From positions 648,788 to 712,787 of the forward strand of contig CP064989.1 of assembly GCA_016699875.1 (NCBI GenBank): a stretch of DNA of 64,000 nt, read 5' to 3'. Positions within the stretch are counted from its first letter, which is position 1. Each line of letters starts with the position of its first letter. The notes beneath the pieces are model-generated. The model saw only the letters and a program-made list of their open reading frames with translations, ran no database searches and was not told the DNA's origin. Source of the DNA: Candidatus Moraniibacteriota bacterium (GTDB taxonomy: Bacteria > Patescibacteriota > Minisyncoccia > Moranbacterales > UBA1568). Made by a program: the position numbers and the translations under genes. This document shows, in pieces, positions 6,074-61,672 of this stretch.

Positions 6074-6186
6074 AAAATGAGGTTATTGATTGTTTCTTTG
6101 GGAGTCTGTAGAGGGGGTGCGCGGTTTTTCCGCTTCTGATTTTATGATACAGTGAAGACGTTCTAACTTCTTCCATATATTTCTCT

Positions 6187-7371: not shown

Positions 7372-7426
7372 AAAAATTCTGTCTCGTCATTCCCGCCCGT
7401 GCGGGGGTGATATATGTATGATCCTT

Positions 7427-34854: not shown

Positions 34855-36030
34855 TTGCTTGTGTCATGGAACGCAGCTCCCACACATAATACAAATATGC
34901 GTCGCGTTTCAATACTGTCTTCTCGAGGTTCGATTCTCGCATACTCACTCATCTTGCTCGGCATTGTTCTGGTTGCTTCAATCGGAATGATGTCAGCATC
35001 AGTCACGAACCTCAAATCTGTTTCTTCCAATGATAAATCCGTTAGTGCTTTTCAGATAGCTGATTCGGCATCTCAGATTGCGATACGGCTGCTCAATGAC
35101 ACGTCGAGTGGAACCTTGAAGGACATGGTTGAGCCTGACACAAGTTGTCCAGGCGGAAGTGCCGCAGCTATGGAAGATGGGAATTTTCTCGGTGGGAGCT
35201 ACCGGATTGTCTTTTTAGATGTTGATGGGCAGATGCTGAAATGTGGTGACGACGTGTCTGATGTTGTCTCGGTGAAGTCGGTTGGAACCTATGGTGATAC
35301 GGTGCGAGCCGTTCAGGCGGCGGCAATGAGTGGATCGAAGCTCCTCGGATGGTGGAAATTCAATGATGGATCTGGGGTGACGGCAGTGAATGAAGCGTCG
35401 AGTAGGGGAAATGGTACGCTTGGAGGTTCGTCTCTTCCGATCTGGGGGGATGGTCCGCCAAATTACACTTTGGATTTCAGTGGGGCGGACGGAGAGGTGA
35501 CGATGGCAAATGAGTCGGATTTTGATTTGAAGCGTACAATAAGTATATCGCTCTGGTTTCGAGTGGATAATTTTCCATCGGGATCTGGGTGGGCGCCGCT
35601 TGTGTCGAAGATGGACTCGTCCGGATCTGATGCCTCTCAAAATTACTCGGTGTGGATTAATGGGCTCAAATTTGTTCACCTGACATCATCAAGTAGTTCC
35701 GGTACGCAAGCGTGTTCGGATACAAAGGACATTTTAAATACGGGAACATGGTATCACTACGTTGGTGTCATTGACCGGGATTCAGGCAGTATGAAACGCT
35801 ATGTTGACGGCAATCTGGTTCTTCCTGGATTGACCACACACCATTGTTCCGGGGCGGGAGTGTTCACGTCCGGGGATGCTCAGGAGAATAACAACCCAGT
35901 AAAAGTAGGTGGGAAATTTGGCAGCTTCGATTCGTTTGACGGAAAGATAGATGATGTCCGTATCTATAATGGACTCCTGTCTTCAACGGATGTCTCCTTG
36001 TTATACGACAGTGGAAATGGAAGGGAGTAA
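34855..36030 (+). CDS. membrane-anchored secreted protein with a C-terminal LamG_3 (concanavalin A-like) domain
   Basis: N-terminal hydrophobic anchor. LLGWWKFNDGSG...KIDDVRIYNGLLSSTDV, a LamG_3 signature. Alternative start at 34897. Confidence 0.55.
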   Translation: MLVSWNAAPTHNTNMRRVSILSSRGSILAYSLILLGIVLVASIGMMSASVTNLKSVSSNDKSVSAFQIADSASQIAIRLLNDTSSGTLKDMVEPDTSCPGGSAAAMEDGNFLGGSYRIVFLDVDGQMLKCGDDVSDVVSVKSVGTYGDTVRAVQAAAMSGSKLLGWWKFNDGSGVTAVNEASSRGNGTLGGSSLPIWGDGPPNYTLDFSGADGEVTMANESDFDLKRTISISLWFRVDNFPSGSGWAPLVSKMDSSGSDASQNYSVWINGLKFVHLTSSSSSGTQACSDTKDILNTGTWYHYVGVIDRDSGSMKRYVDGNLVLPGLTTHHCSGAGVFTSGDAQENNNPVKVGGKFGSFDSFDGKIDDVRIYNGLLSSTDVSLLYDSGNGRE

Positions 36031-47572: not shown

Positions 47573-47647
47573 TCCGGCGTAGCTCAGCGGTAGAGCGAGG
47601 GACTGTTAATCCCCAGGTCGCAGGTTCGAATCCTGCCGCCGGAGCAA
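47573..47647 (+). tRNA. tRNA-Asn (anticodon GTT)
   Basis: Acceptor TCCGGCG/CGCCGGA, D-arm GCTCAGCGGTAGAGC, anticodon loop CTGTTAA, T-arm GCAGGTTCGAATCCTGC. No encoded CCA. Confidence 0.85.
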
Positions 47648-47652
47648 ATGAA

Positions 47653-47681
47653 AATAAGGCTTAAACACGCCTTATTTTTTG
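47653..47681 (+). terminator. terminator hairpin after the tRNA (ATAAGGCttaaacacGCCTTATTTTTT)
   Basis: Stem followed by T6. Confidence 0.55.
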
Positions 47682-47757
47682 TTACCCCGGACTGGAGTTC
47701 GAACCAATTTGTTTAAGATGCTATGATTTATTTATTATTTGCAAAGGAAATTAAATC

Positions 47758-48468
47758 ATGGAAGATAAAATTCTAAAATTAAATAATACAAGAATTTATG
47801 TTGTGAGAAGTATTCATCCATACACAAGAACCGTTACGGATGAAGAGCTTGCAAAGAAAGGTATTGGAATTGGAAATGATTGGGATAGCGATACTGATCA
47901 TGCGGCATATCAATGGAAAATGGTAGATCATTATGGATCGGGTATGGGCGTTATGTCCCGTGAATATAATATGCCTGTTGGAAAATGGTCCGTATATTTA
48001 GCTAAAGACTTGGAGCATGCAAAAAATAAATTTCTCAAGGAAAAGAAAAAAGAAGGCGATGTATTGTATATTGCTGAAATCGATTTAATTAAAGTTAAAC
48101 TTGGAAAAAATCTGCCGTTTGAATATATGGAGAAAGATGAAAATGGAAAATTGAAATATGCAGAAACTGCTTTAGAAATAGATAGTGATAATGAAGCTGG
48201 AGAGTATCACTTGGTATCCCAAAGGAGCTTAGAAACATTACAGGCAGGTCTCAAATGTGGATTTGATTCGACTGGAAGACTAAAAGATGATGGAAATCTT
48301 TTTGGCGAATTCTATTTGGATAATTATAAAGATCCCTCTCAAATTGAAAAAGAATATATTTTTAGAGTCAAAGAGGGGGAACATGTAGAAATAACCTCAG
48401 AAATAAAACGTCTAAGAGGGGAGATGGAATCTCAAAAAGAAAGGCTATCTAGTTTTAAGTTGAGATAA
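47758..48468 (+). CDS. hypothetical protein (first cassette of the low-GC island)
   Basis: 236 aa, K/E-rich and AT-rich coding. No recognised domain. Confidence 0.5.
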   Translation: MEDKILKLNNTRIYVVRSIHPYTRTVTDEELAKKGIGIGNDWDSDTDHAAYQWKMVDHYGSGMGVMSREYNMPVGKWSVYLAKDLEHAKNKFLKEKKKEGDVLYIAEIDLIKVKLGKNLPFEYMEKDENGKLKYAETALEIDSDNEAGEYHLVSQRSLETLQAGLKCGFDSTGRLKDDGNLFGEFYLDNYKDPSQIEKEYIFRVKEGEHVEITSEIKRLRGEMESQKERLSSFKLR

Positions 48469-48470
48469 TA

Positions 48471-48503
48471 AGGTTCTGGCATCATCCAATCTGGGTCTCA
48501 TGA
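48471..48503 (+). repeat. island 3' box, copy 1 (AGGTTCTGGCATCATCCAATCTGGG)
   Basis: Member of a repeat family sharing GGTTCKRAC-NTCNTCCA...CGGAGC. Confidence 0.6.
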
Positions 48504-48513
48504 ATTAATGAAA

Positions 48514-48578
48514 GAAGTTCGAACTTCCTCCAAGGCTCGGAGCTAGCTAATTTGAGGCTTTGTTAAGCCTCTTTTTTG
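48514..48578 (+). repeat. island 3' box, copy 2, plus hairpin terminator
   Basis: GAAGTTCGAACTTCCTCCAAGGCTCGGAGC...TTTGAGGCTTTGTTAAGCCTCTTTTTT. Confidence 0.7.
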
Positions 48579-48602
48579 ATACAAGGGGTTCTAACCTGGT
48601 AT
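48567..48602 (+). promoter_or_regulatory. sigma70-like promoter (TTGATA-18-TATACT) for the SDR cassette
   Basis: Spacing and hexamers close to consensus. ATG at 48615. Confidence 0.4.
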
Positions 48603-48614
48603 ACTAAAAGTACT

Positions 48615-49373
48615 ATGGAAAATTCTAAATCACTACAATCTAAAGTTGCTCTCGTTACTGGTGTTGGCAGAAAGGAGGGGATTGGTATGGCTATCTGTCG
48701 TGAACTTGCCAAAAATGGGGCAGATATTTTCTTCACCTACTGGCATCCCTACGATCAGGAAACTCATCCTGATAGTGAAAACAATATGCAAGCTCTTAGT
48801 ACTGATTTAGAGCAACTTGGTGTAAAAGTGAAGAGCAGGGAAGTAGACTTGTCTCAACCTGACTCTGCAGAGAGGCTCTTTGAGGAAGTAGAAAAAAAGT
48901 TAGGCACTCCTTCTGTTCTCGTAAATAATGCTTGCCATGACTTTGAAGTTGACTTCACGGAACTTTCACCAGAGATATTGGACTAGCATTATGTAGTGAA
49001 TGTCAGAGCTGTTACGATGCTCTGTAAAGAGTTTGTGAAAAGAGGAAAGACTGGACATATCATCAATATGACATCAGGCCAGTCTCTCGGTAGTATGGGA
49101 GGTCATAAAATTCCTTATACTATTACGAAGGCAGCTTTAGAGATGCTAGCACCGCAACTCGCTCCTGAATTGAAAAATCTCGGAATCTCTATAAATTCGC
49201 TCGATCCAGGGCCAACTGACACTGGTTGGATGACAGAAGAAGTAAAAGAGATGATTTTGAAGGATTCTAAAAAAGGATTTATAACTACCCCAGAAGAAAT
49301 CGGAAAGCTGGTCGTAAAGATTCTTACTCAAAATCAGTATAAAAGTGGAGAAGTAATTCACGCTGAACGTTAG
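48615..49373 (+). pseudogene. short-chain dehydrogenase/reductase interrupted by an in-frame TAG at 48984..48986
   Basis: N-terminal ALVTGVGRKEGIGMA (TGxxxGxG), NNAC, then after the stop S-x12-YxxxK (MTSGQS...YTITKAAL) in the same frame. Confidence 0.6.
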
Positions 49374-49384
49374 AAATCAAGGGC

Positions 49385-49950
49385 ATGGCTAAAATTTCAT
49401 TAGAAAAATTACTTTCTGAAAAAGAAGCAAAAGTTGGGGATACGATCTTTATTGCAGTTGATGGTCATGGTGGTTCTGGAAAATCAACATTTGCAAAATG
49501 GCTTTCAGAAGAGTTAGATGCACAAATTATTCAGACAGATGATTTTGCCTCCTGGGATAACCCGCTAAACTGGTGGCCACTTGTCATTGAGAAAGTATTT
49601 GATCCCATAAAAAAAGGAGCTAGGACTTTAAGTTATCCTCGATCATCGTGGTGGGAGAATCATCATCCAGAGCCAGTTATTGACCAGCCAGTAACAAAAA
49701 TTATGATTCTTGAGGGAGTGAGCTCTTTGAGAAAGGAATTTCGTAATTACATCAGCCTAGGTTTTTTTGTAGATACACCTTTGTTTGCAAAGAGGAGTAG
49801 AGAGAGATTCTGGCACTGGGAAAACAGCGCAGGAGCTCGAGGAAATGTGGAATAAGTGGTTTGCTGAGGAAGAAGTGTATATGAAGAGGGATAACCCTAA
49901 GAACTATGCTGATGTTGTTCTCGAGGGGTCAAAGTCATTTGTAGACCAGG
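49385..49950 (+). pseudogene. P-loop nucleoside/nucleotide kinase-like protein with a frameshift near 49815 (A-run)
   Basis: IAVDGHGGSGKSTFAKWL P-loop. The C-terminal AQELEEMWNKWFAEEEVYMKRDNPKNYADVVLEGS continues in another frame. Confidence 0.5.
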
Positions 49951-49963
49951 TTGATTAACCAAA

Positions 49964-50030
49964 CGGGTTCTAACATCATCCAGTACCCGGAGCTTACTTC
50001 AGAAAATGGCTTAGTATAGCCATTTTTTGT
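49964..50030 (+). repeat. island 3' box, copy 3, plus terminator
   Basis: CGGGTTCTAACATCATCCAGTACCCGGAGC...AATGGCTtagtatAGCCATTTTTTG. Confidence 0.7.
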
Positions 50031-50154
50031 TGCCTGGGAGTATTGACTCAAAGATGAAATTATGCTAAGATATATTATTCATTGACCTTCCTAAATAGAC
50101 GCGACAAACATCACGCGTTGTGGTGAGTCGAACCTGTTTAGGAGGATAAACGCA

Positions 50155-50361
50155 ATGGCGGAATATTGTAATTTGTCTCGAACGGACAGAGACAAGTTTC
50201 TCCAGTTTGCCAGAAATGGACGCTGGGGGACATGCGACGACTGCCCAAGAGATACGGATGGCCGAGTGTATCCCGAGTTCTGTCCCAATACGGACCGTTA
50301 TGACCATCGGATGACAATGGAGGAGTTGGCCGACTACTACAAGGTCCTTATAAAGGGATAG
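50155..50361 (+). CDS. small cysteine-containing hypothetical protein
   Basis: 68 aa. RBS AGGAGGATAAACGCA. CxxC-like (CDDCP...CP). Confidence 0.4.
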   Translation: MAEYCNLSRTDRDKFLQFARNGRWGTCDDCPRDTDGRVYPEFCPNTDRYDHRMTMEELADYYKVLIKG

Positions 50362-50466
50362 TCTGACCCAGAAGTAAGCAGAAGACTGCTGTTCTGGGTC
50401 TTTTGCTTTTCTATACCACCACCCACTCCAATTCTTTTAAGTCTTTCTGAATATTTCCCCAATCAA

Positions 50467-50530
50467 AAGTTCTAAGTTCATCCACTAGAGGGAGCCATTT
50501 AAAAAAGAGGCTTAGATTAGCCTCTTTTTT
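50467..50530 (+). repeat. island 3' box, copy 4, plus terminator
   Basis: AAAGTTCTAAGTTCATCCACTAGAGGGAGCC..AAGAGGCTTAGATTAGCCTCTTTTTT. Shares an extended roughly 110-bp unit with copy 5. Confidence 0.7.
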
Positions 50531-50695
50531 GTTTTTTCTGAATGCATACTAAAACATATTGACATAAATTTTAACATGTGCTATTTTAAAACGTTGTTTT
50601 GAGGTCTATTTATTTGGCTTATGGCACAATAAATACTTCAACAACAGATGATAAATTTGTTTTTTTGTTTTACAACACTACGTTGGAGGTCTACC

Positions 50696-50989
50696 ATGTC
50701 AAACGGAAGAACCTACGCTGTTCCGGCAGAGGATATCAAAAAGTATGTGGATCAGGCAATAGCGCAGCTTGGCCTCGATCCGGTGTTCGTGGATGACATG
50801 GACAGTGCCATGTATGCGCATCACCTTGTGTACCATTCCGAAAATGCAAGTGTTGCGAGGGAAGTATTTAATATGCCAGAGGCTTCCATTAGCGAACTAG
50901 CTCGGAAAATGGCTGATGCTGACGGGGAAACTATTACGAAAATTGAGAAAGATGAAAGGTATCAGTTGCCCCCCCCCTCATACAGGTGA
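50696..50989 (+). CDS. hypothetical protein
   Basis: 97 aa. RBS GGAGGTCTACC before the ATG. A TTGACA-17-TATTTT promoter lies upstream (about 50560). Confidence 0.4.
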   Translation: MSNGRTYAVPAEDIKKYVDQAIAQLGLDPVFVDDMDSAMYAHHLVYHSENASVAREVFNMPEASISELARKMADADGETITKIEKDERYQLPPPSYR

Positions 50990-51102
50990 GCGATGATCAA
51001 TAACTGATTACCCACCGCAGGAATCTGCCTCGGTGGGTTCTTGCTTTTTATGTCAAAGTCCATTCCAATTTCCGAAACACTTTCATAATTTCTCCCAAAT
51101 CC

Positions 51103-51175
51103 AGAGTTCTAAGTTTGTCCACCAGGCGGAGCAGCGCTAAATAGAGGCTTTAAAAAAGCTTTAATTTTTGTTTTT
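51103..51175 (+). repeat. island 3' box, copy 5
   Basis: AGAGTTCTAAGTTTGTCCACCAGGCGGAGC...ATAGAGGCTTTAAAAAAGCTTTAATTTTTG. Confidence 0.7.
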
Positions 51176-51314
51176 GTGGAGGGCTTTCTGGTTTGTTGGG
51201 AGAAACAAAAAATGATTTTGATTTACAGCTTAGCTATATTTACTTGCATAGAATATAACTAAGATGTACTATAGTTAGTATCGGGTAGATAAAATGTAAC
51301 TAAATTGCAAAGGT

Positions 51315-52484
51315 ATGATTTTAGGGAAATTTATTCGACAAAATACCGGTAGTATAGGCGAATATAAGGCATTTATACCAGACAAGTTCCCTCCAAAGGG
51401 CGGATTTTCGTTTTCTCCGGACATAGTGAAACAAGATGCAAAAGCCCAACATTTAGTAAGTAAGCTTGATGGAATTACTCAATTGCTTCCCGATGTCGAC
51501 TTTTTCATTTTCATGTATATCTTGAAAGATGCGACGTCATCAAGCCAGATTGAAGGTACGGGTGCTACCATGATTCATGCCCTGGAAGCGGAGGCTAAGA
51601 TTGATGTTGACCTTCCTGATGATGTCGACGATATCGTTCACTATATCAATGCACTTAACAAGGGCATGGAAATGCTTGGTAAACTTCCAATAAGTAGCAG
51701 ACTTGTGAAATCGATTCATAAGGAGCTGATGCAAGGAGCGCGATCGACCCATGATGCCGTTCCTGGTGAGTTTCGTCATGATCAGAATTGGATCAATGGT
51801 ACGAAACCTCAGGATGCGAAATTTGTTCCGCCGCCGGTACACGAAATGCAGCGAGCGCTCGACGATTGGGAAAAATTCGTACATAAAGATGATAATCTAC
51901 TTCCGCTTACCAAGGCCGCTATGTTGCATGGACAGTTCGAGACCATTCATCCATTTCGAGACGGTAATGGAAGAACTGGTCGCATGATAACCACGCTTTA
52001 CCTTCATGAAGCTGGTCTTCTCGAAAAACCAACACTGTTTCTCTCGTCGTATTTTAAGAGATATCAAAAGACATACTATGCTCGACTTGAAGGGTATCAC
52101 TCGGGTGAGGTTGAGGAATGGGTGCGATTCTTTTTGACTGGTGTAGCGGAAACGGCACAGGAAGCAATTGAAACTGTACATCGAATTACGAAGCTGCGCG
52201 AACGAGATATTTTGAAGATACAAGGTTTGGACAAAAGATCCTCGCAGAGCGCTATAGTTGTACTCCCGCAACTCTTTGCCTTGCCAATTATCGATATTGT
52301 GACAGTGAGCAGATGGACCGGTTTTAGTCAGAACGGGGCGCAAAAGCTGGTTGATCGATTCGTTGATCTCGGCATTTTGCATATTCGCGATGAGAATCGG
52401 AAATATCGACGGTCGTATATTTACAAAGATTATGTTGATATTTTTTATGACGCTCGAAGAGAAAAAAATGAAGCAATTGAATAG
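51315..52484 (+). CDS. Fic-family protein (AMPylase/ADP-ribosyltransferase-like), copy 1
   Basis: HPFRDGNGRTGR Fic motif. C-terminal wHTH-like region. 389 aa. Confidence 0.85.
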   Translation: MILGKFIRQNTGSIGEYKAFIPDKFPPKGGFSFSPDIVKQDAKAQHLVSKLDGITQLLPDVDFFIFMYILKDATSSSQIEGTGATMIHALEAEAKIDVDLPDDVDDIVHYINALNKGMEMLGKLPISSRLVKSIHKELMQGARSTHDAVPGEFRHDQNWINGTKPQDAKFVPPPVHEMQRALDDWEKFVHKDDNLLPLTKAAMLHGQFETIHPFRDGNGRTGRMITTLYLHEAGLLEKPTLFLSSYFKRYQKTYYARLEGYHSGEVEEWVRFFLTGVAETAQEAIETVHRITKLRERDILKIQGLDKRSSQSAIVVLPQLFALPIIDIVTVSRWTGFSQNGAQKLVDRFVDLGILHIRDENRKYRRSYIYKDYVDIFYDARREKNEAIE

Positions 52485-52519
52485 GTTTCGGAGTTTTTTG
52501 CTATGAACGAATTATTATT

Positions 52520-53178
52520 AGAACCTGTTTACAATCTTCCGGTACACTGAGGACATAATCCTCAAACCAAAAGAACCATGTATCCAAGCGACATAACCCG
52601 AGAACAATTCGAACACATCAGACCATTTCTCGAATCAACCAGGAAGAGAACCAAACCAAAGACACTTGATTCCTATGACGTATTCAACGCTCTGCTCTAC
52701 ATTCTGGTCACGGGTTGCCAATGGAGGGCACTTCCCAAGGATTATCCAAAATGGCAGAGTGTCTATCGACACTTCCTTGTCTGGAAGGAACGAAAAAACA
52801 AACAGACAGAGAGTATGCTTGAGCAAGTCTTAAAAAAAATTGGTCGAACAAGAACGTATGAAAAATGGCAAACAATGCAAAACCAGTTTCTGCATCGTTG
52901 ATGCTCAAAGTGTCAAGAATACAGATACGGCTCGAGAAAAAGGTTATGATGCAGGAAAAAAAGTTTCCGGTATCAAGCGACATATTCTCGTTGACACCAA
53001 CGGATTGCCGCATGCGTTCACGGTAACCACTGCTAACGTCACTGATCGAAAGAGAAGTTTCTCCTGGCTGGAGAAATGCCGAAGGCTCTGGAAGAATTGC
53101 GAACGGACACTGGATTCGAGCTTACAGATGATGGTTTTAAGTTTTGATCGATTGTTGTTGAAAAGATTGTAAACAGGT
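52520..53178 (+). mobile_element. internally deleted IS5-family element (IS427-like) with intact 18-bp terminal IRs
   Basis: IRL AGAACCTGTTTACAATCT (52520..52537) is the reverse complement of IRR (53160..53178). Only about 660 bp long. Confidence 0.7.
52578..53172 (+). pseudogene. IS5-family transposase remnant (orfA-like plus frameshifted, truncated orfB-like)
   Basis: FNALLYILVTGCQWRALP (DUF4096-like), then IVDAQSVKNTDTAREKGYDAGKKVSGIKRHILVDTNGLPHAFTVTTANVTD in the -1 frame, then a further frameshift and premature end. Confidence 0.65.
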
Positions 53179-53216
53179 TCTAAGACGTCTTAAGTAAGCC
53201 TAATTATTTATAAGAC

Positions 53217-53282
53217 AGGTTCTGACATCGTCCAGTGCTCGGAGCAGATGAAATAGAGGCTCATACAAGCCTCTGTTTTTAT
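53217..53282 (+). repeat. island 3' box, copy 6, plus terminator
   Basis: CAGGTTCTGACATCGTCCAGTGCTCGGAGC..ATAGAGGCTCATACAAGCCTCTGTTTTT. Confidence 0.7.
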
Positions 53283-53359
53283 GCTCTTACCAAGCAGATT
53301 CAGTCGTATCAATAAAAAACAGTGAATATTGTGATACTTATGCATTTTGTTAACTGTAA

Positions 53360-53388
53360 ATTGACAGAATATAGTGAATAGAATATAA
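53360..53388 (+). promoter_or_regulatory. consensus sigma70 promoter (TTGACA-17-TATAAT) for Fic copy 2
   Basis: Perfect -35 and -10 hexamers with 17-bp spacing, 27 bp upstream of the ATG at 53415. Confidence 0.55.
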
Positions 53389-53414
53389 TAAACACATAAT
53401 ATTCACTAAAAAAT

Positions 53415-54305
53415 ATGGCCATTACTAAACCAATTCGGAATCGTATTCAAAAATTAAAGAAAGAATTTGACGCTTTAAGAAAGGGAAAGGAGTCGCTTCT
53501 GACTCTTATTGATGAAGCTGAAATTCCGGAGAGTGTCTACAACTCTAATGCTATTGAGAATTCAACGCTGACGCTCCAGGAGACCGAAAAAATACTCCTT
53601 GATATTGCCGTATCGCGAGATGTATCTGTGCGGGAAGTCTTTGAAGCGAAGAATCTCGCTCGTGTTATCAACTATATCCGTACAAAGTCCCAGGAAAAAG
53701 AAATTGATAGGGATGTAATTTTACTCTTGCATCAGATGCTCATTGGAGGCATTAAAGATGAGATTGCGGGGCGTTTCCGAAATAAAGGAGAGTATGTTCG
53801 AGTGGGAACATATATCGCTCCGGCTCCGGAGCATATCAATCTGATGCTTGACTCGATCCTTTCCGAATACGGAAGCGATCATGATTCATATTTTCTTGAT
53901 AAAATAGCGAAGTTCCATCTACATTTCGAAAATGTTCATCCATTTTGCGATGGTAATGGTCGGATTGGCCGGGCTCTTGTCTGTTATCAACTGCTTCGAT
54001 TGGGATTTCCTTTGGTCATCGTTCGAAATAAAGAGAAAGAAATTTATTATAAAGCATTTTCAGATTATCGTGATCAAAAGAATTCGAAAACTATGGAAAA
54101 AATGTTTTCCCTGGCTCTTACAGAATCATTGCATAAGCGTATCACCTACCTGAAAGGAGAGAACGTTATTACTCTTTCCGAATATGCTAAGAAACATGGC
54201 GAATCGTCACCCGCCCTCTCGAATGCAGCTCGTCGACAGAATATTCCGGCTTTCCGAGAGAAGGGAGTTTGGAAGATCGGTGAGAAATTCAAAAAAGACC
54301 GGTAG
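53415..54305 (+). CDS. Fic-family protein, copy 2 (shorter, divergent)
   Basis: HPFCDGNGRIGR Fic motif. 296 aa. Confidence 0.85.
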   Translation: MAITKPIRNRIQKLKKEFDALRKGKESLLTLIDEAEIPESVYNSNAIENSTLTLQETEKILLDIAVSRDVSVREVFEAKNLARVINYIRTKSQEKEIDRDVILLLHQMLIGGIKDEIAGRFRNKGEYVRVGTYIAPAPEHINLMLDSILSEYGSDHDSYFLDKIAKFHLHFENVHPFCDGNGRIGRALVCYQLLRLGFPLVIVRNKEKEIYYKAFSDYRDQKNSKTMEKMFSLALTESLHKRITYLKGENVITLSEYAKKHGESSPALSNAARRQNIPAFREKGVWKIGEKFKKDR

Positions 54306-54327
54306 AGGATTTACTTGTTTTCTCAAG

Positions 54328-54392
54328 TAGGCTCGAACTTCTTTGAGAGCTCGGAGCTAGTAAAAGCAAGGCTTAATAGAGCTTTGTTTTTG
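54328..54392 (+). repeat. island 3' box, copy 7
   Basis: TAGGCTCGAACTTCTTTGAGAGCTCGGAGC...hairpin...GTTTTTG. Confidence 0.65.
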
Positions 54393-54518
54393 TTACCGAA
54401 GGAGGATTTAAACGGTCTGGACAGAAGCAACAAAGTATGCTATTATTAGAGGTCAGTTGAAATGACTGACCATTGTTGGGATGTTTCCGCAATGTCTTCC
54501 TGAAAGAGGATTGCAATC

Positions 54519-54962
54519 ATGTCACTTAAAAAATATACCCTCCCGAATCTACTCACATCGTTGTATGAAAGTGCAACAAAAGCGCTTCATGTAATTTGGT
54601 CAGACCGATTTGTAGTCATTCATGGGACTATTGTAAACCGTGAAGGGTCAAATTGGATTGTCAACCTGACCGTGCAGGTGCACTTCAAAACACCGCATTA
54701 TCACGGATGGACATTCCTTGAAGTTTCTGTGCATGTGAGTGAGTCTTTAAGGCATGCGACTGACAACGGACCCATCCTTGTCGAGGTGAAAAATCCTAAA
54801 ATGGATCCTCCTAAAATCATGATTGCCAGAGTTCTCGTCTGGAAGGACTGCTACAACCCAGACAATCCTCTGGACGCCTGGGGTCGGATGTATGTACGCG
54901 ACGACGACAAAAAAGACTTGGAGGTCATAGAGTACCTTGTATTGGAGGGAATTGTCGACTGA
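54519..54962 (+). CDS. hypothetical protein
   Basis: 147 aa. No motif. Confidence 0.4.
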   Translation: MSLKKYTLPNLLTSLYESATKALHVIWSDRFVVIHGTIVNREGSNWIVNLTVQVHFKTPHYHGWTFLEVSVHVSESLRHATDNGPILVEVKNPKMDPPKIMIARVLVWKDCYNPDNPLDAWGRMYVRDDDKKDLEVIEYLVLEGIVD

Positions 54963-55059
54963 TTCTCCCTGAGAAGAAGCTCCCAAAGGATAACTATCCG
55001 GCGGGAGCTTTTCAATTTCAAATGCTCAGCATGTAGATTTGAACTCGGTGCTTGATCCC

Positions 55060-55128
55060 CTTAATACATGGGTTCGTACTTCGTCCAACATGTGGAGCTA
55101 GTTTGGATGGTTTGTCCCCAAGGCAGAT
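55060..55128 (+). repeat. island 3' box, copy 8
   Basis: GGGTTCGTACTTCGTCCAACATGTGGAGC...GATTTTTTG. Confidence 0.6.
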
Positions 55129-55322
55129 TTTTTGTTTATATTAATCTTTGTTTTTATCCTGTAGATAAATGATTTCTGTACTCGGGAGAGCTTTTCTTCT
55201 TTAAGACTTGGTTCGAGAGGATACAAAATTAAGAAATTGCTGCTCTTGCTCGATATTTTCCTCTAGGAAGGTGGTCTTTGCTTAGCTGGCAGTTTTGACT
55301 AGGGATACCCGGGTAAACTATA

Positions 55323-55351
55323 TTGACAATTTATACTTCATGTCGTATAGT
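55323..55351 (+). promoter_or_regulatory. consensus-like promoter (TTGACA-17-TATAGT)
   Basis: Upstream of the 393-aa ORF. Confidence 0.45.
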
Positions 55352-55417
55352 GAGTTGTCAGTCTGGAAATCCAGGTATGACAAAACCCGATAGTAACTTA
55401 ACAGAGGACTAGACAGA

Positions 55418-56599
55418 ATGAGTAACAGCACCATTTTCTTTGAAGAAGCTCTGCGCGAAGTTGGTGTGAGCGATGTGGCGATTGCTGCCTTGATCGATAA
55501 CGAATACACTGATGTCAGCCAGTTGACTAACCTTGATGTCAATGACTTTTTGGCACTAGGCATCAAGGGTCGTCCAGCCTCGCTTTTGGCAGAAAAGTTC
55601 GGTAGACGTTCTGGCGGTCAATCAGTAGATTTGGATCAATCTACTTCGAAGCAGCCCATCAAGGTCGAGGTATCGTTGCCGAAATCGTTCGATCAAATGG
55701 GAACTTCCGAACTTCTCTCACAGCTCGCTGATACCAGTAACGCAGATGCGTTGTCGACATTGCTAGGTAAGCCGGAAGTGATTGCTGCTTCGGCTAGGAC
55801 GGATTCATGGGCTATTCCTGGCACTGGTGGAACGAAGCTGGATGTCGACGCGACAATGGCGTACATTCGCTATCTCGGTAAGCCAGGGGCAACTCCCCAA
55901 CGCCTGTATCAGGGACGTCGTCCCAAGAGCATCCATGTCATCCTTGGCGTTGTCGAGAAGACCCTGGTTAACCCATTTACGGGCGAGCCGGTGGTTGAGG
56001 GTTTGGATGCATCCGGAAATGACTGGTCGAAGACTGATCGTATCCTCATGAAAGCGATTTTGTGGGCGCGATTCACTCGACATAGGTTCTTCCCAGCCGC
56101 CATCGATCCATTCTCAGCCTTTGAGGAAATTTCTCAGCAGCCGCTGCCGCGGCGTTGGCAAGGTATTTTGGATGATTACAACGCGGCGGTCGAGGATGAA
56201 GATCCCGCGGCCTTGGGTGTGAGCTTGGCGTGGAAGGCTCCTACTGCTACCAATACCAACGGTAAGGGTGATACGATTGGCGGTGTCGCTGCTGAACAGC
56301 GGACTCGTGGCGCAGCGCTTGACCCGGAGTCTTTTGTCCGGGCGAAGTGTCAGGGTGCTGGTACTTTGTCCGGTATGGATTCAAAACTTGTTGGTGTCTT
56401 TTCGACTGTTGCTGTTTCTGGAATGAATCAGTCAGTCTGTGTTATAGTGCTGGATTCTTTTAAAGTAAGTGGTATGAATCAATCCGGCGTTGTTTACCTT
56501 GCTCCAGGTGCTGTCACAAAAGGATCGGGTATGGGAAACACCATCAGCATAGAACGGAAGAGTTGGGAACAGTTGGCTCAGATAGCCAGGGAATGGTAA
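55418..56599 (+). CDS. hypothetical protein (higher GC than its neighbours, two SGMNQS repeats near the C-terminus)
   Basis: 393 aa. No recognised domain. Confidence 0.45.
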   Translation: MSNSTIFFEEALREVGVSDVAIAALIDNEYTDVSQLTNLDVNDFLALGIKGRPASLLAEKFGRRSGGQSVDLDQSTSKQPIKVEVSLPKSFDQMGTSELLSQLADTSNADALSTLLGKPEVIAASARTDSWAIPGTGGTKLDVDATMAYIRYLGKPGATPQRLYQGRRPKSIHVILGVVEKTLVNPFTGEPVVEGLDASGNDWSKTDRILMKAILWARFTRHRFFPAAIDPFSAFEEISQQPLPRRWQGILDDYNAAVEDEDPAALGVSLAWKAPTATNTNGKGDTIGGVAAEQRTRGAALDPESFVRAKCQGAGTLSGMDSKLVGVFSTVAVSGMNQSVCVIVLDSFKVSGMNQSGVVYLAPGAVTKGSGMGNTISIERKSWEQLAQIAREW

Positions 56600-56674
56600 T
56601 AGTCCGTTAGCATCCTTCTAAAAGGAGCTTTATCAGGCGGTAGACTAGCATGTCTGCCGCTTTATTTTTTTAAA

Positions 56675-56705
56675 GAGGTTCGAACTTCTTCCATCGCTTG
56701 GGCAT
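56675..56705 (+). repeat. island 3' box, copy 9
   Basis: GAGGTTCGAACTTCTTCCATCGCTTGGGC. Confidence 0.55.
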
Positions 56706-56778: not shown

Positions 56779-56838
56779 ACGTTCGAAGGCTGTCCATCCA
56801 AGAGCAGATCAAATAGAGACTTGTATGATTCCCTATTT
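56779..56838 (+). repeat. island 3' box, copy 10 (degenerate)
   Basis: AACGTTCGAAGGCTGTCCATCCAAGAGCAGATCAAATAGAGACTTGTATGATTCCCTATTTTG. Confidence 0.45.
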
Positions 56839-56933: not shown

Positions 56934-57365
56934 ATGAAAAAAATACCCTCAACGCTCGAACGTGTTCTTGCTGAAGTTGAGCTGGGAAATGTGCAGACGG
57001 AACAAGCTTTAGTCGATTTCAATCCAAACGGCATACCAATTAATTATCTTTTGTACTTCTGTGAACTGCCCGATGGGACAGTTGTATATTTTGGTCGCGA
57101 GAGTATATTCAAAGATCGTAGATTAATTCTTCGAGAGGATTTCCTTGCTGTTGGCAAGAATAAACAGCGCGTCAAAGATGGTCTCAAGTACCCGACGCTT
57201 CGATCCCCAACGTTCCTTAAGGAAGGGTTTGATGATGTTGAGATGATCGAACCACTTGCTTATGAAGTGCTGCCTAGAGAACAGCATGCGGATGCTCTTG
57301 AATACAACAAGGTGTTGCAGCAGACTCTCGAGAGACTTTATCGAGCTCTCACATTGAATGACTGA
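56934..57365 (+). CDS. hypothetical protein
   Basis: 143 aa. RBS AAAGGAGCGGGTGTA before the ATG. Confidence 0.4.
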   Translation: MKKIPSTLERVLAEVELGNVQTEQALVDFNPNGIPINYLLYFCELPDGTVVYFGRESIFKDRRLILREDFLAVGKNKQRVKDGLKYPTLRSPTFLKEGFDDVEMIEPLAYEVLPREQHADALEYNKVLQQTLERLYRALTLND

Positions 57366-57613: not shown

Positions 57614-60600
57614 ATGAGTCAAGAAAAGTTGAGCGCGCGTTTACTTTGGTCATTTGGACCTGTTTTTGTGGCGGGCATTTTTCTCTGTATCTTTCCTAAA
57701 AGCGCTTCAGCTGAATGGTTGGCGAACTGGCAGTATCGAAAGGCAATTACCATCACAGGTCAATCAGGCGCGGGAACGGATTTTCAGATGAAGCTTCTCA
57801 TTGGAGAAAGCGCCGGATCATCGGGTGCGAATTTTAATCTTGGGGGAAATGCTGCGAACTTCCCCTCCGGGAAAGGTCAGGGGGGCGATCTCTTTTTTAC
57901 CGATAATGATGGTTCGACAGCTCTTTCATTTTGGGTGGAAAGTATCTCGGGATCGTCTCCAAATCGTACGGCGACAGTGTGGGTGAAGGTGGCCGATAAC
58001 TTGTCATCTACTCAGACTATCGATTGCTATTACGGGAATGAGGGTGCATCGAATGTGAGTAGCGGCGACAATACATTTTTGCTGTTTGACGATTTCGATG
58101 GAGCGAGTTTGGATACGGGGAAGTGGGCGAAGCAAAGTTCTGCGGGAGGATCTGTCTCTCTCGGGAGTTCGCAATTGACGTTGAGTAGCACCTCGACGTC
58201 TGACTATGTGTGGGTTGACTCAGTAAATACATACAGCATACCAACGTTGTCCGAAACGAAAGTAGATTCCTTTTCGCCGTCCGGAGCGACGTATCGTATG
58301 GGACAAACGACTGGCGTTACGCCGCGTGGAGACAATGGAAATCTGTATAGCGAGTACTCTGCCGATGCCCTGGGTACGAGCTATCGTATCGTGGGGGATA
58401 ACGCGTCAGCCGGTTGGTCGGTGTCAGTGACATCGCTCGGGTCGGACACGAGTGGCATCTGGTCTTTTGCTTGGCCTTCGACCGGTTCGCAGAAGTTCTT
58501 TGTCAACTACAGCCAAAAACTGACGGGGAGTGATAGTGTCAATAGTTTGAGTTCATACCACATGTATCTGGGCAATGCGATGTCGAGTGCGGGGTCGTCC
58601 AGGGTGGATTGGGCGAGAGTGAGGAAGTATGTATCAACGGAGCCGAGCGTGAGCAGTGTGGCGAGCGAGGAGAGTGTGTCAACGTGCATCGCCGGGAACT
58701 TTTCGGGAGGGTCGGGAATGGAGGCGGATCCATACCATGTGGCTACACTCAATGAGCTTGAGAGTGTGCGAACATGTTTGAACAGTCATTTTATTCAGAC
58801 GGCTGATATCGATGCCTCTGCTACGAGTACGTGGAATGGCGGTGATGGTTTCCATCCTATCGGCGACGGTACGGCTCAGTTTAGCGGGACATACGACGGA
58901 GACAGCCATGTGATTGACCATCTTTCAATCAATCAAACCGGAAATTATCGAGGGTTGTTCGGATATATAAAGGGGTCTTCGCCATATACGGCGGAAGTAA
59001 AAAATGTGGGACTGACGAATGCCACGGTACAAGGAACCTACATGATCGGTGTCCTCGCAGGATTTTTTGATGCAGCGCTCATTGATCGTTGTTATGCCAC
59101 GGGGAGCGTGACCAGCGATGCTCTTTCGCTCACCGACTGGACCAATGCCGGAGGTCTTGCGGGAAGGGGTTACCGGTCAAAAATCCAAAACTCTTGGGCA
59201 CATGTGACGGTGACAGCAAAAGGATATCGCAACGGAGGATTGGTAGGGCAGATGTGGGATGATGCTACGGATTCGTCTCAGATTCTCAGCTCTTTCAGTT
59301 TGGGTGATGTGGTGGGCGGGTCCACCTACACGGGAGGGCTGGTAGGCGTGATGAATGGCGGCATTATCCGAAACTCGTATGCTCGTGGAGATGTGACGCG
59401 CAGCTCCGGAGCAACTAGCGCAACACTCGGAGCCTTTATGGGCGGCTGGTATGACGATCAGTCGGAGGTTCACACCTCATACAGTACGGGGAACGTATAT
59501 TATGCCGGAACATCCGACCCGACAGACAGAGGATTTAGCGGAGGAAACATTACCAATGATGCTAACTTTTTTGACGGCGAAGTATCAAACCAATCAAGCG
59601 CTCTGGGCGCAACCGTCAAGACAATCGCGCAGATGAAGACTGTGGGCACGTTTACCGGGGCGGGGTGGAATTTCGGCTCCGTGTGGGGTATTGAAAGCGG
59701 AGCGAATGACGGATACCCGCGGTTACTCGCATCAAACGAACGAACGCTCACATATGCTGCCGGGGCGGGGGGAACTGTTTCCGGGACGACATTTCAAATT
59801 GTCTCTTCAGGATCAAGCGGTGCGGCGGTAACGGCGGTACCGAGTACGGGATATCATTTTGTAAACTGGAGCGACAGCTCGACTGACAATCCTCGGACCG
59901 ATACGAATGTTGCGAGCAGTGTTTCTGTTACTGCCAATTTTTCGCCTGATACTTTCACGCTCACGTACGCTGCCGGGACGGGCGGGTCTCTTAGTGGGTC
60001 GGCAACGCAGACCGTCTCGTATGGATCGGATGGCAGCGCTGTCGAGGTGGTCCCGTCGAGTGGTTACGCGTTTTCCAAATGGAGCGATGATGCGACTGAC
60101 AATCCTCGGACCGATACGAATATTACGACGGATGTTTCCGTTTCGGCTCTCTTTGTTGATTCGGGTGCTCCGACGATATCCGGAGCATCTGCTGTGCCAA
60201 CGGACAGCTCGGTAGATATCACATGGAACACAGACGAAGCGAGCACGTCTCAGGTATCGTATGGACTGACATCGTCTCTCGGATCTTCCACTGCCAAAGA
60301 CAGTTCGCTTGTTGGCAGTCATAGTGTGAACATAGGTTCACTCCATGCGTGTGCCCGCTACTTTGTGCGCCTGGTGTCGGATGATGCCGCGAGCAATACC
60401 GCAACATCGAGTATATTCACTTTTAGCACCCTTGGGTGCGACACCTCTGCGATCGAAGACGGCGGGGAAGAATCTGTGCCCACCAGCGGAGGGACAGTTT
60501 CTACCAATACCACAAAAGGAACGGCGTCCCTTACGATTCCCGGTGATTTCTATACTTCCGGTGGGATTCCCAAAGAGGCAACCTTTCAAATCAATACGCT

Positions 60601-61672
60601 CGACACGGACAGTGTTTCTTCCGAGCCATCGGGGACGGGCTTGGTAGGAGATAATCTTTTCGATCTTTTGGCGGTATCTGAGGATGATGTGCCGATAACT
60701 GCTTTTGACAAAGATATCACGTTTGTTGTGCACTACGGGAGCGATGTGCAAGATTCTTTTGAGGAGGGGACGCTGGATATATACCGCTACTCCGGTGGAG
60801 AGTGGATAAAACAAAACTGTACGCTTGATACGACCGCTCATACGCTCACCTGCCTGTTGTCACATTTCTCTTCCTATGGCGTGTTTGGATCGGAGATAGG
60901 CGAGGGTGGGACGGGGGACGGCGAGGATGCCTCCAATGACAATGACACGGAAGAGGTAAAGAAGGCCGATATAAACTCATGGAGCGCCTCCCTCTACAAC
61001 GTGCTTGTGCCATCGAGTTCATGCCCGGAGCGTGTGAGGCTGGTCATCACCGGGCACGATTTTGCTAAGCATCCACAGGTACGAATCGGAGGAAAGAAGG
61101 CTCTCTGGGTGGAGAGAAAATCGAGCCGGAAGATCGTGGCAGGCTTTTGTTTGACCGATTTGCTGAAAGTAAAAGTGGGAAACAAAAGGTCTGTCAAAGT
61201 AGTGAATCCGGGGACCAAAGCGGAGGAAGCGGACAAGAAAATCGATCTTGAACAATTGGACTTTGAAGACGAATATGAGAGCGTCTCTCAAGATGCGCCA
61301 ACGGGCGGGTCTGTCCCCTCAGGGAAAGAGGATGAGCCGAATATTGAGGAAATGCCGGAATACTTGGGAGCGGGAACGCCGAATGTATGCTCATATTCCG
61401 TTGAAGCGGGAGACTCGCTCTGGTCTATCGCCAAGCAGGTCTATGGAGATGCGACAGCCTACCCATTGATTGTTCGGGAGAATATGGAGCGATACCCTGA
61501 TATTTCCAAAGGGACACTGCACGTCGGGCAGTCTCTCGTATTCGGATGTGATGGTTCTTCCGGCATGCCAGAAAGTTCGCATTCCGATGAGCGAGATGAT
61601 ACAGCGCAGACGAATAGTGAATCAGAAAATTCGCAGGATGCCCGCTGGTGGAACCCGCTGAGTTGGTTTTGA
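57614..61672 (+). CDS. giant cell-surface protein: signal peptide, DUF2341-like N-terminal domain, beta-helix/GLUG-like repeats, two Listeria-Bacteroides (Flg_new) repeats, Fn3/Ig-like, C-terminal LysM
   Basis: 1352 aa. WLANWQYRKAITI (DUF2341 hallmark). YDGDSHVIDHLSIN..NYRGLFGYI beta-helix-type repeats. TLTYAAG.GG.VSG...Y.F..WSD motifs twice. C-terminal CSYSVEAGDSLWSIAKQVYGD..HVGQSLV (LysM). Confidence 0.85.
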   Translation: MSQEKLSARLLWSFGPVFVAGIFLCIFPKSASAEWLANWQYRKAITITGQSGAGTDFQMKLLIGESAGSSGANFNLGGNAANFPSGKGQGGDLFFTDNDGSTALSFWVESISGSSPNRTATVWVKVADNLSSTQTIDCYYGNEGASNVSSGDNTFLLFDDFDGASLDTGKWAKQSSAGGSVSLGSSQLTLSSTSTSDYVWVDSVNTYSIPTLSETKVDSFSPSGATYRMGQTTGVTPRGDNGNLYSEYSADALGTSYRIVGDNASAGWSVSVTSLGSDTSGIWSFAWPSTGSQKFFVNYSQKLTGSDSVNSLSSYHMYLGNAMSSAGSSRVDWARVRKYVSTEPSVSSVASEESVSTCIAGNFSGGSGMEADPYHVATLNELESVRTCLNSHFIQTADIDASATSTWNGGDGFHPIGDGTAQFSGTYDGDSHVIDHLSINQTGNYRGLFGYIKGSSPYTAEVKNVGLTNATVQGTYMIGVLAGFFDAALIDRCYATGSVTSDALSLTDWTNAGGLAGRGYRSKIQNSWAHVTVTAKGYRNGGLVGQMWDDATDSSQILSSFSLGDVVGGSTYTGGLVGVMNGGIIRNSYARGDVTRSSGATSATLGAFMGGWYDDQSEVHTSYSTGNVYYAGTSDPTDRGFSGGNITNDANFFDGEVSNQSSALGATVKTIAQMKTVGTFTGAGWNFGSVWGIESGANDGYPRLLASNERTLTYAAGAGGTVSGTTFQIVSSGSSGAAVTAVPSTGYHFVNWSDSSTDNPRTDTNVASSVSVTANFSPDTFTLTYAAGTGGSLSGSATQTVSYGSDGSAVEVVPSSGYAFSKWSDDATDNPRTDTNITTDVSVSALFVDSGAPTISGASAVPTDSSVDITWNTDEASTSQVSYGLTSSLGSSTAKDSSLVGSHSVNIGSLHACARYFVRLVSDDAASNTATSSIFTFSTLGCDTSAIEDGGEESVPTSGGTVSTNTTKGTASLTIPGDFYTSGGIPKEATFQINTLDTDSVSSEPSGTGLVGDNLFDLLAVSEDDVPITAFDKDITFVVHYGSDVQDSFEEGTLDIYRYSGGEWIKQNCTLDTTAHTLTCLLSHFSSYGVFGSEIGEGGTGDGEDASNDNDTEEVKKADINSWSASLYNVLVPSSSCPERVRLVITGHDFAKHPQVRIGGKKALWVERKSSRKIVAGFCLTDLLKVKVGNKRSVKVVNPGTKAEEADKKIDLEQLDFEDEYESVSQDAPTGGSVPSGKEDEPNIEEMPEYLGAGTPNVCSYSVEAGDSLWSIAKQVYGDATAYPLIVRENMERYPDISKGTLHVGQSLVFGCDGSSGMPESSHSDERDDTAQTNSESENSQDARWWNPLSWF

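Follow-up and report, generated by a model that had tools for sequence, protein, structure and literature searches.

A tandem array of small cassettes at the 3' end of tRNA-Asn in a Moraniibacteriota genome: a candidate product of a large serine recombinase acting in trans

What has built the tandem series of short units, each closed by a copy of the same sequence box, that lies directly downstream of the tRNA-Asn gene of a Candidatus Moraniibacteriota bacterium? The array occupies 47.6–56.8 kb of the stretch of 64,000 nt analyzed here, hereafter called the window (assembly GCA_016699875.1, contig CP064989.1, positions 648,788-712,787, forward strand). A first-pass annotation, made from the sequence alone, had considered that the boxes resemble the 3' end of the adjacent tRNA with a longer spacer, and that they might be the scars left by serial integration at this gene. 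The resemblance is real, the spacer being always exactly 5 nt longer, and the description given of one box was accurate save for its first base, which is A and not G. We favor another origin for the boxes: with a probability of about 0.7, the comparisons of sequence presented below point to a tandem array of small mobile cassettes built at the tRNA-Asn 3' end by a large serine recombinase, hereafter abbreviated as LSR, working in trans. In this analysis tRNA genes were called with ARAGORN, RNA families with Rfam, protein domains with Pfam and defence genes with PADLOC, while contigs carrying related boxes (at least 120, numbered with the prefix L) were gathered by scanning metagenome contigs with the box pattern.

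The array comprises about nine units, all on the + strand and 3' of tRNA-Asn(GTT), the sole tRNA gene of the window (table 1). A unit is laid out as a hairpin with a run of T, often a good promoter of the sigma-70 type, usually one gene and then the box; a hairpin with T-run follows the tRNA directly, and others lie 4–12 nt 3' of most boxes. The G+C content from tRNA-Asn to ~56.8 kb is 37–44%, versus ~50% in the flanks. Boxes conform to the pattern (A/G)GTTC(G/T)AAC-NTC-NTCCA-N5-(C)GGAGC, which can be written also as (A/G)GTTC(G/T)AAC-NTCNTCCA-N5-CGGAGC. Matches to a profile of the box start at 48516, 49966, 50468, 51105, 53218 and 55071, with weaker ones at 48472 and 56677, and the boxes at 54330 and 56780 are visible by alignment only; counting the degenerate copies at 48472, 56677 and 56780, there are nine to ten boxes between 48.5 and 56.8 kb. 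The Rfam search of the array returned only the tRNA and no family for the boxes. A box-like 17-mer at position 6159, lacking both core and hairpin, was discarded as a chance match.

The relation of the boxes to the tRNA lies in their geometry. The tRNA gene ends with GGTTCGAATCCTGCCGCCGGAGC (47623-47645), which has the form GGTTCGAA-TCC-N6-CGGAGC, and the box at 48516-48543 reads AGTTCGAACTTCCTCCAAGGCTCGGAGC. In both sequences TCC occupies positions -9 to -7 from the core CGGAGC, whereas the stretch from GGTTC to CGGAGC is exactly 5 nt longer in every box than in the tRNA, so that the tRNA has 20 nt, and the box 25, between GGTTC and the middle of the core; the same displacement of GGTTCGAA by 5 nt separates all boxes from 18 tRNA-Asn genes. 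According to a rule established for serine integrases (PMC3783163), attB and attP carry their proximal motif at the same distance from the centre, but the distal motif of attB is nearer to it by 5 bp, and in the model of the A118/LI integrase the half-sites measure ~20 bp in attB and ~25 bp in attP (Rutherford et al. 2013, PMC3783163). The pair of box and tRNA shows this very shift of the distal (ZD) motif by 5 bp, with the proximal (RD) motif in register. Because the distances of 20 and 25 nt agree with the published rule, the tRNA end has the geometry of an attB-type half-site and the box that of an attP-type half-site, rather than the longer spacer being a feature of direct repeats left by a tyrosine integrase.

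Within the window alone, the likeness between box and tRNA does not reach significance, since GTTCGAA-N5-35-GGAGC has 2 matches against 0.53 expected and 10 of 100 shuffled sequences reach the same number. Both GGTTCGAA and TCC are generic T-loop/T-arm sequence; CGGAGC alone is specific to tRNA-Asn (5.5/6 matches in 23 tRNA-Asn genes vs 1-4/6 in other tRNAs). The contiguous run common to box and tRNA is only ~5-6 nt, the box profile has no match to the tRNA, and a T-arm cannot be formed in the box. We also looked for co-variation of the box 3' end with the acceptor of the local tRNA, which had looked striking in L089 and L130, and found no difference between 37 cognate and 555 non-cognate pairs (p = 0.32). 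Likewise rejected was a stem enclosing the core, by pairing of N5 with the bases after CGGAGC, for the bases flanking the core are unpaired.

Statistical weight comes instead from the distribution of the box beyond the window. Its pattern is present in at least 120 metagenome contigs, against ~14 chance matches estimated for an assumed collection of roughly 1e12 bases, and its profile gives 287 matches in 120 box contigs and none in 80 control loci (1.2 Mb). Many of the contigs have multiple boxes. In 115 of the 120 all boxes share one strand, and of the five exceptions four are weak matches. Successive boxes are spaced by a median of 792 bp (quartiles 510 and 1387), and the longest open reading frame (ORF) runs in the same direction as the box in 93 of 120 intervals. 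The consensus is not a product of ascertainment, because 96 boxes that fall outside the search pattern yield the same one, AAAnAGGTTCTAACATCGTCCA-N5-cGGAGC. Moreover, the box is conserved over a very deep divergence, as the RpoD proteins of array-bearing contigs are mutually just 54-70% identical. The hosts of the array are Patescibacteria, and the best match of the window RpoD in the genome collection is that of a Moraniibacteriota metagenome-assembled genome with 73% identity. In the scan of this collection with RpoD, that closest relative has no tRNA-Asn after rpoD and boxes are absent from all 80 loci; exact-protein look-ups of the window RpoD and HypC gave no record for either.

In many lineages the arrays are anchored to tRNA-Asn. 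A same-strand tRNA upstream of the first box is present in 19 contigs; the nearest one is Asn(GTT) in 16 of them and His in one. The remaining two, those of L097 and L133, had been called Thr or Gln but are tRNA-Asn genes interrupted by a group I intron (Rfam RF00028, 68.8 bits), so that an apparent association with tRNA-Gln proved to be an artefact. The intron sits in the anticodon loop (gene at 4583-4882 in L133 and ~3176-3700 in L097; also in L084), and ARAGORN either misses such genes or calls them Thr(TGT) in its intron mode. Synteny of RpoD and tRNA-Asn is common to the window and five tRNA-linked contigs.

Similarity between related loci breaks at or within CGGAGC in three independent comparisons. 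L133 and L186 are 99.7% identical over 2.2 kb and lose their similarity exactly at ...|GGAGC of a box; L133 and L097 are orthologous, with flanking core genes ~94% identical, and are similar up to the last base of the tRNA, after which their cassettes differ; L155, in which an LSR gene lies beside the tRNA, and L112, in which it lies beside a box, become homologous from the core onwards. Furthermore, contigs of one assembly have common ends of 127 nt at boxes, which indicates forks of the assembly graph at these sites. The island thus stays tied to tRNA-Asn in related loci while orthologous sites hold different cassettes, and on these grounds serial integration at this gene, the more general part of the first-pass proposal, is supported.

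Some contigs show other arrangements around the same junction. In L098 (683-817), a complete inverted box lies 27 nt from the 3' end of tRNA-Asn and the 25 nt that follow the tRNA recur without change behind a direct box at a distance of 640 nt, which looks like an inverted or palindromic junction. Between the otherwise identical contigs L113 (4728-4804) and L122, the one difference is an insertion of 77 nt at ~350 nt from a box. The rpoD contigs L003, L007 and L013, from other bacteria of the candidate phyla radiation, stop 0-150 nt after tRNA-Asn, a situation that suggests assembly breaks at the locus.

The most recurrent protein family of box contigs is an LSR with Resolvase, Recombinase and Zn_ribbon_recom domains, the closest solved relatives of which are the A118 and TP901-1 integrases. 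Its genes are physically linked to the sites in L100, L139, L155, L201, L101, L112, L202, L106, L160 and L164; in the first four they come directly after tRNA-Asn on the opposite strand, and in the next three directly after a box. Beyond the LSR-bearing tRNA or box, the next box is found after 5.5-11 kb. The simplest case is the 709-kb contig L201, with tRNA-Asn, LSR, reverse transcriptase, one box, terminator and then ordinary genes. A reverse transcriptase is placed between LSR and far-end box in two elements, L139 (9014-10027) and L201 (a 611-aa RVT_1 protein, locus 6166-8001). When scored with the NCBIfam models of CcrA, CcrB and CcrC, the LSR proteins reach 35-110 bits against cut-offs of 700-900; their scores with XisF are equal and also below cut-off.

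The reading frame of the LSR runs up to and through the core CGGAGC and then into the adjoining sequence, whichever this is. Six LSRs that are only 27-51% identical have the tail ..FEP.K....YSQSP.LL(R) in common. Beside the tRNA the tail becomes ..LLRxxDSN..PID, and its stop codon is either TAA, formed opposite the TTA of the anticodon loop, or an earlier TAG formed opposite a CTA of the T-stem; beside a box it becomes ..LLRxxD(D/N)(V/I/F)RT... instead. More than 5,283 homologues are found at E <= 1e-20, with source names including Patescibacteria, Nomurabacteria and Minisyncoccia, and among the best 120 of these ~94 tails are of the tRNA type and ~22 of the box type. The complement of the box, read in the frame CTC-CGN, encodes a conserved peptide with the common form LRIVDDVRT.I...EYIYIPDL and a second form, LPLVDELRTFDW..I..EL, that is present in window boxes b3 and b4 (b3 belonging to a sub-family whose complement encodes LPLVDELRTFDWGNIQKDLKELEWVVV*). 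When the peptides of window boxes b2, b3 and b4 are searched for, the matches fall only in the extreme C-termini of LSR proteins, with E values down to 6e-6. Judged by these peptides, the box is the 3' coding end of an LSR gene, and since its complement encodes the C-terminal tail of the enzyme, the attP site would lie inside the LSR gene itself. Tyrosine recombinases are not among the 25 most frequent Pfam families in 150 mid-sized ORFs of box loci, and none was found in the window ORFs scanned.

A second palindrome, GGTTCGAAC(C), occurs ~55-70 nt after the core in ~12 of 217 units and also in the LSR 3' coding regions examined, where it reads GGTTCGAACC. Its sites are at 47697-47704 and 48588-48595 in the window, in L093, L097, L104, L133 and L181, and at the LSR 3' ends of L100, L139, L160 and L201. 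Different LSRs read this DNA as FEP or, one frame over, as VRT (..RLEPLKN.. vs ..KVRTSKN..), and because it is read in two frames the palindrome is conserved as DNA and not as protein. In cassettes it is positioned in the spacer of an extended -10 promoter. We rejected the second GTTCGAAC palindrome as a part of the att site, for it is too far from the core and present in so few units.

In the mechanism that we propose, a cassette is the segment that runs from one core (C)GGAGC to the next, with a terminator hairpin first, then a promoter of its own, a single gene in the orientation of the tRNA and the P arm (AAAnAGGTTCTAACATCGTCCA-N5). The last 23 nt of the tRNA would serve as attB-type half-site and each box as attP-type half-site, with GGTTCGAA as the proposed motif for the zinc-ribbon domain and TCC as that for the recombinase domain, and strands would be exchanged within or beside CGGAGC. 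The tRNA, or any box, would recombine with a circular cassette formed by P arm, core and hairpin; the newest cassette would land beside the tRNA and provide its terminator, and any run of cassettes between two sites could leave as a circle. The full-length parent elements, ~5.5-11 kb in size, encode the LSR immediately 3' of the core but on the other strand, which would place attP within the last 25-35 codons of its gene. Integration would thereby swap the tail of the LSR, and the box-type tail would be expected also in the excised circle. Most cassettes have no LSR, and the system is assigned to this enzyme because of the 5-nt geometry and the continuity of its frame through the core. That the LSR moves recombinase-less cassettes is what we infer from these features, as are the exact crossover dinucleotide and a regulatory role of the tail swap. 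Cassette genes have the orientation of the tRNA, and the cargo genes of LSR elements that of the LSR; given these opposite directions, simple deletion within LSR elements does not account for the cassettes.

Several points weigh against this proposal. Of the 120 box contigs, no more than ~8 contain an LSR; in the window, phmmer searches with two LSRs gave no match among ORFs of at least 60 aa, and Pfam scans of ~40 larger ORFs no recombinase domain. Canonical LSR sites have two recognisable half-sites, and the sites of LSR elements are roughly symmetric (TCCA-N5-CGGAGC-AN3-TGGGA(C/T)), but the right-hand (P') half is almost unconserved in recombinase-less cassettes. The collected set of boxes is biased by its search pattern, and among the contigs compared no recombination product, either circle or empty site, was observed. 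Canonical serine integrases, moreover, pair only attP with attB, or attL with attR together with a directionality factor, and serial insertion at an occupied tRNA therefore needs a relaxed pairing of sites. Relaxed pairing of this kind is on record for Ccr recombinases, by which tandem SCC-like cassettes 3' of rlmH are mobilised (PMC11470126).

A further objection is that the array may be partly fossil, as its decayed boxes at 48472, 56677 and 56780, the in-frame stop of its dehydrogenase gene and the insertion sequence (IS) fragment in cassette 5 suggest. In the stronger form of this idea, boxes are remnants of LSR gene ends from old insertions and the cassettes are immobile in this lineage, to which the absence of LSR matches in the window can be added. 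We regard this as rather unlikely, for seven window boxes still fit the consensus well (profile E values of 3e-8 to 3e-4), strain-level differences fall at the core in other lineages, assembly graphs fork at boxes, and the direction of the cassette genes is opposite to that of LSR-element cargo. In any case, a fossil state concerns only the present activity of the window and is compatible with the origin of the array by LSR-driven integration of cassettes.

The lack of an LSR in the window and in most box contigs, together with the unconserved P' halves that are atypical of LSR sites, could also mean that another recombinase, a chromosomal one of Xer type or some other encoded elsewhere, moves the cassettes and that LSR elements are passengers of the hotspot. 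This is improbable, considering that the P arm is the 3' coding end of an LSR gene, that the LSR frame crosses the core, that the 5-bp shift of the distal motif with a fixed proximal motif is a specific signature of LSRs and that the far end of LSR elements is formed by the same box. Still less probable are classical tRNA islands moved by tyrosine integrases, in which the boxes would be displaced and decaying ends of tRNA-Asn. The array does abut tRNA-Asn and has GGTTCGAA...CGGAGC in common with it, and tandem islands with partial tRNAs are known, for example tycheposons. Yet all boxes exceed the tRNA end by the same 5 nt and maintain a consensus of their own across hosts with RpoD identities of 54-70%, their profile does not match the tRNA, the run of identity is confined to the ~6 nt of the core and is no longer for the local tRNA than for those of other loci, no tyrosine integrase recurs in box loci, and the opposite strand of the box encodes an LSR tail. 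On the same evidence, the earlier view of the boxes as regenerated or left-over tRNA ends is not supported. That the boxes are RNA-level or expression elements (tRNA-like modules of 3' untranslated regions, terminator accessories, repetitive extragenic palindromic-like repeats) or integron attC sites, as their location between stop codon and terminator hairpin and the integron-like cassette scale of ~0.8 kb might suggest, is hardly credible in view of the lack of any Rfam match, the unpaired flanks of the core, the impossibility of a T-arm, the conservation of the peptide that the opposite strand encodes and the coincidence of breakpoints with the core and, for integrons, of the lack of an IntI gene and of R''/L''/L'/R' symmetry in cassettes that have their own promoters.

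With origin by a LSR acting in trans as the preferred explanation, the closest analogue in function would be the tandem composite arrays of staphylococcal cassette chromosome (SCC) elements in staphylococci. In SCC and SCCmec, too, an LSR (CcrAB/CcrC) targets the 3' end of a conserved housekeeping gene (rlmH), and tandem recombinase-less cassettes bounded by repeated att sites are mobilised in trans, as is proposed here; tandem cassettes of this kind, with repeated sites at the 3' end of a housekeeping gene, are found in the window and in related arrays. SCC arrays are enriched in anti-phage defence genes (PMC11470126), and a comparable cargo is seen here, namely SoFic and PDC-S04 in the window and AbiEii, Mrr, ResIII and type I restriction-modification (R-M) genes in related loci. 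Among the related arrays an OLD nuclease is also encoded. The differences are that the target here is tRNA-Asn instead of rlmH and the hosts are Patescibacteria; that cassettes have a median of 0.8 kb and one gene, against 24-68 kb for SCCmec; and that the LSR, far below the equivalog cut-offs, is not an orthologue of Ccr, with attP inside the recombinase ORF. Phage serine integrases of the A118/LI type exhibit the same 5-bp shift of the distal motif, with distances of 20 vs 25, but here the right half-sites are poorly conserved, the sites form long arrays and the pairings needed (attL-like with attP-like) are disallowed for canonical integrases.

Tycheposons of Prochlorococcus likewise use particular tRNA genes as integration sites and accumulate there in tandem, the older ones being pushed inward and partial att repeats being scattered. 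However, they have mostly tyrosine recombinases (an LSR is carried by 27 of 937 elements), partial tRNAs of ~40 nt and replication modules, whereas the box repeats described here are no fragments of a tRNA, and the units mostly consist of one gene and are devoid of hallmark genes; true direct repeats of the tRNA 3' end, tens of nt long, with a tyrosine integrase were not found in the array. With integrons the array has in common its long one-directional order, single-gene cassettes of ~0.5-1.5 kb, a fixed entry site and a cargo of defence or toxin genes. It shows none of the features that define an integron, lacking a tyrosine IntI, folded attC sites and a shared Pc promoter. These cassettes bring their own promoter and terminator, and their hairpins are T-run terminators; neither attC with R''-L''...L'-R' symmetry nor IntI beside attI was found, the latter in the window ORFs scanned and among the frequent families of box loci. 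Finally, Broussard and colleagues reportedly described in 2013 integration-dependent switches of mycobacteriophages, in which attP lies inside a gene and integration changes the C-terminus of the protein. The LSR genes would resemble these switches in having attP in the coding region and different C-terminal tails in integrated and excised forms, although the gene split there is a repressor and the integrase a tyrosine one, while here it is the LSR itself that is split. In full-text literature searches, of incomplete coverage, no description of such arrays in Patescibacteria was found.

Tentatively, and at a little short of even odds, we advance a broader interpretation, namely that these arrays represent a previously undescribed platform of cassette capture in Patescibacteria, of the scale of integrons and driven by the LSR. 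tRNA-Asn would be its fixed entry site and hundreds of one-gene cassettes its content, each with its own promoter and terminator and an attP-type half-site only, which is the 3' coding end of the recombinase; C-termini that differ between the free form, the form beside a box and the form beside the tRNA could constitute a switch reporting the state of integration. Bacteria of the candidate phyla radiation have tiny genomes, and gene exchange among them is little understood. If the interpretation is true, an LSR family of more than 5,000 members might be a main route of gene flux and of turnover of defence genes in these reduced genomes. It would explain the hypervariable locus beside tRNA-Asn at which contigs often break, the supply of defence genes, among them SoFic and those for AbiE-type toxins and for restriction enzymes, and the abundance of 'recombinase family protein' annotations. 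Mechanistically, it would be the serine-recombinase counterpart of the integron, with single-gene cassettes, and a natural case in which one good half-site and a 6-nt core seem sufficient. For genome engineering, too, there would be practical value in a serine integrase that acts through short, defined sites on a nearly universal tRNA sequence.

Table 1. Coordinates in the window of the tRNA-Asn anchor, the proposed cassettes and their parts
Feature	Coordinates	Strand	Evidence or associated parts
tRNA-Asn(GTT), anchor of the array	47573..47645	+	ARAGORN; Rfam RF00005, 71.8 bits
Proposed attB-type (B) half-site, last 23 nt of tRNA-Asn, GGTTCGAA-TCC-TGCCGC-CGGAGC	47623-47645	+	sequence
Shared core CGGAGC in tRNA-Asn	47640-47645	+	sequence
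Cassette 1	47646..48543	+	box b1 48516-48543
Cassette 1, hairpin with T-run, also terminating the tRNA	47650-47681	+	
Cassette 1, second GTTCGAAC palindrome	47697-47704		
Cassette 1, gene for 236-aa protein without family match	47758-48468	+	
Cassette 1, degenerate box without core, 45 nt upstream of b1	48472-48499	+	
Cassette 2	48544..49993	+	box b2 49966-49993
Cassette 2, terminator hairpin	48554-48577	+	
Cassette 2, GTTCTAAC immediately 5' of extended -10 (TGGTATACT)	48588-48595	+	
Cassette 2, short-chain dehydrogenase gene	48576-49373	+	
Cassette 2, P-loop kinase-like gene	49385-49855	+	
Cassette 3	49994..50495	+	hairpin 50000-50029; small ORF 50155-50361; box b3 50468-50495
Cassette 4	50496..51132	+	hairpin 50500-50531; box b4 51105-51132
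Cassette 4, promoter-like TTGACA-17-TATTTT	50559-50587	+	
Cassette 4, ORF with its own terminator	50648-50989	+	terminator 51017-51044
Cassette 5	51133..53245	+	box b5 53218-53245
Cassette 5, SoFic-type Fic gene, full-length	51315-52484	+	Pfam; PADLOC SoFic 1e-107
Cassette 5, IS5-family fragment with 21-nt perfect terminal inverted repeats	52518-53183		Pfam; repeats
Cassette 6	53246..54357	+	hairpin 53250-53279; box b6 54330-54357
Cassette 6, consensus promoter TTGACA-17-TATAAT	53361-53389	+	
Cassette 6, Fic gene, PADLOC candidate family PDC-S04	53415-54305	+	
Cassette 7	54358..55098	+	hairpin 54361-54392; ORF 54519-54962; box b7 55071-55098
Cassette 8	55099..56704	+	promoter TTGACA-17-TATAGT 55323-55351
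Cassette 8, ORF for unknown 393-aa protein, with its own terminator	55418-56599	+	terminator 56635-56662
Box b8, decayed core TTGGGC	56677-56704	+	
Distal degenerate box b9, CGTTCGAAGGCTGTCCATCCAAGAGC, with decayed hairpin	56780-56805 (region 56780..56838)	+	hairpin 56811-56838

Individual cassettes show additional details. The degenerate box of cassette 1 resembles a cassette that is nearly empty, or else a local duplication. In cassette 2 the dehydrogenase gene is split into 48576-48986 and 48996-49373, in one frame, by an in-frame TAG (48984-48986) that is probably a nonsense mutation in a decaying cassette. The core of box b7 is TGGAGC, and box b9 is the probable far end of the array. Besides the unknown 236-aa and 393-aa proteins, there are three cassette ORFs with no family match. 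The IS5-family fragment of cassette 5 contains DUF4096 and a truncated DDE_Tnp_1; the outer 13 nt of its repeats (TTAGAACCTGTTT / AAACAGGTTCTAA) are identical to the 5' end of the box consensus AAACAGGTTCTAAC, a likeness that could reflect coincidence, target mimicry or shared ancestry. A separate DDE transposase is encoded elsewhere in the window (31948-32961). On its 3' side, the array is followed by an ORF (56934-57365) and then by a large surface-protein gene (57614-61672). The latter belongs to a set of three paralogous large secreted or surface proteins, the others being encoded at 14938-19929 and 34855-36030; one of the three has a Laminin_G_3 domain and another combines DUF2341, InlB B-repeat and LysM.

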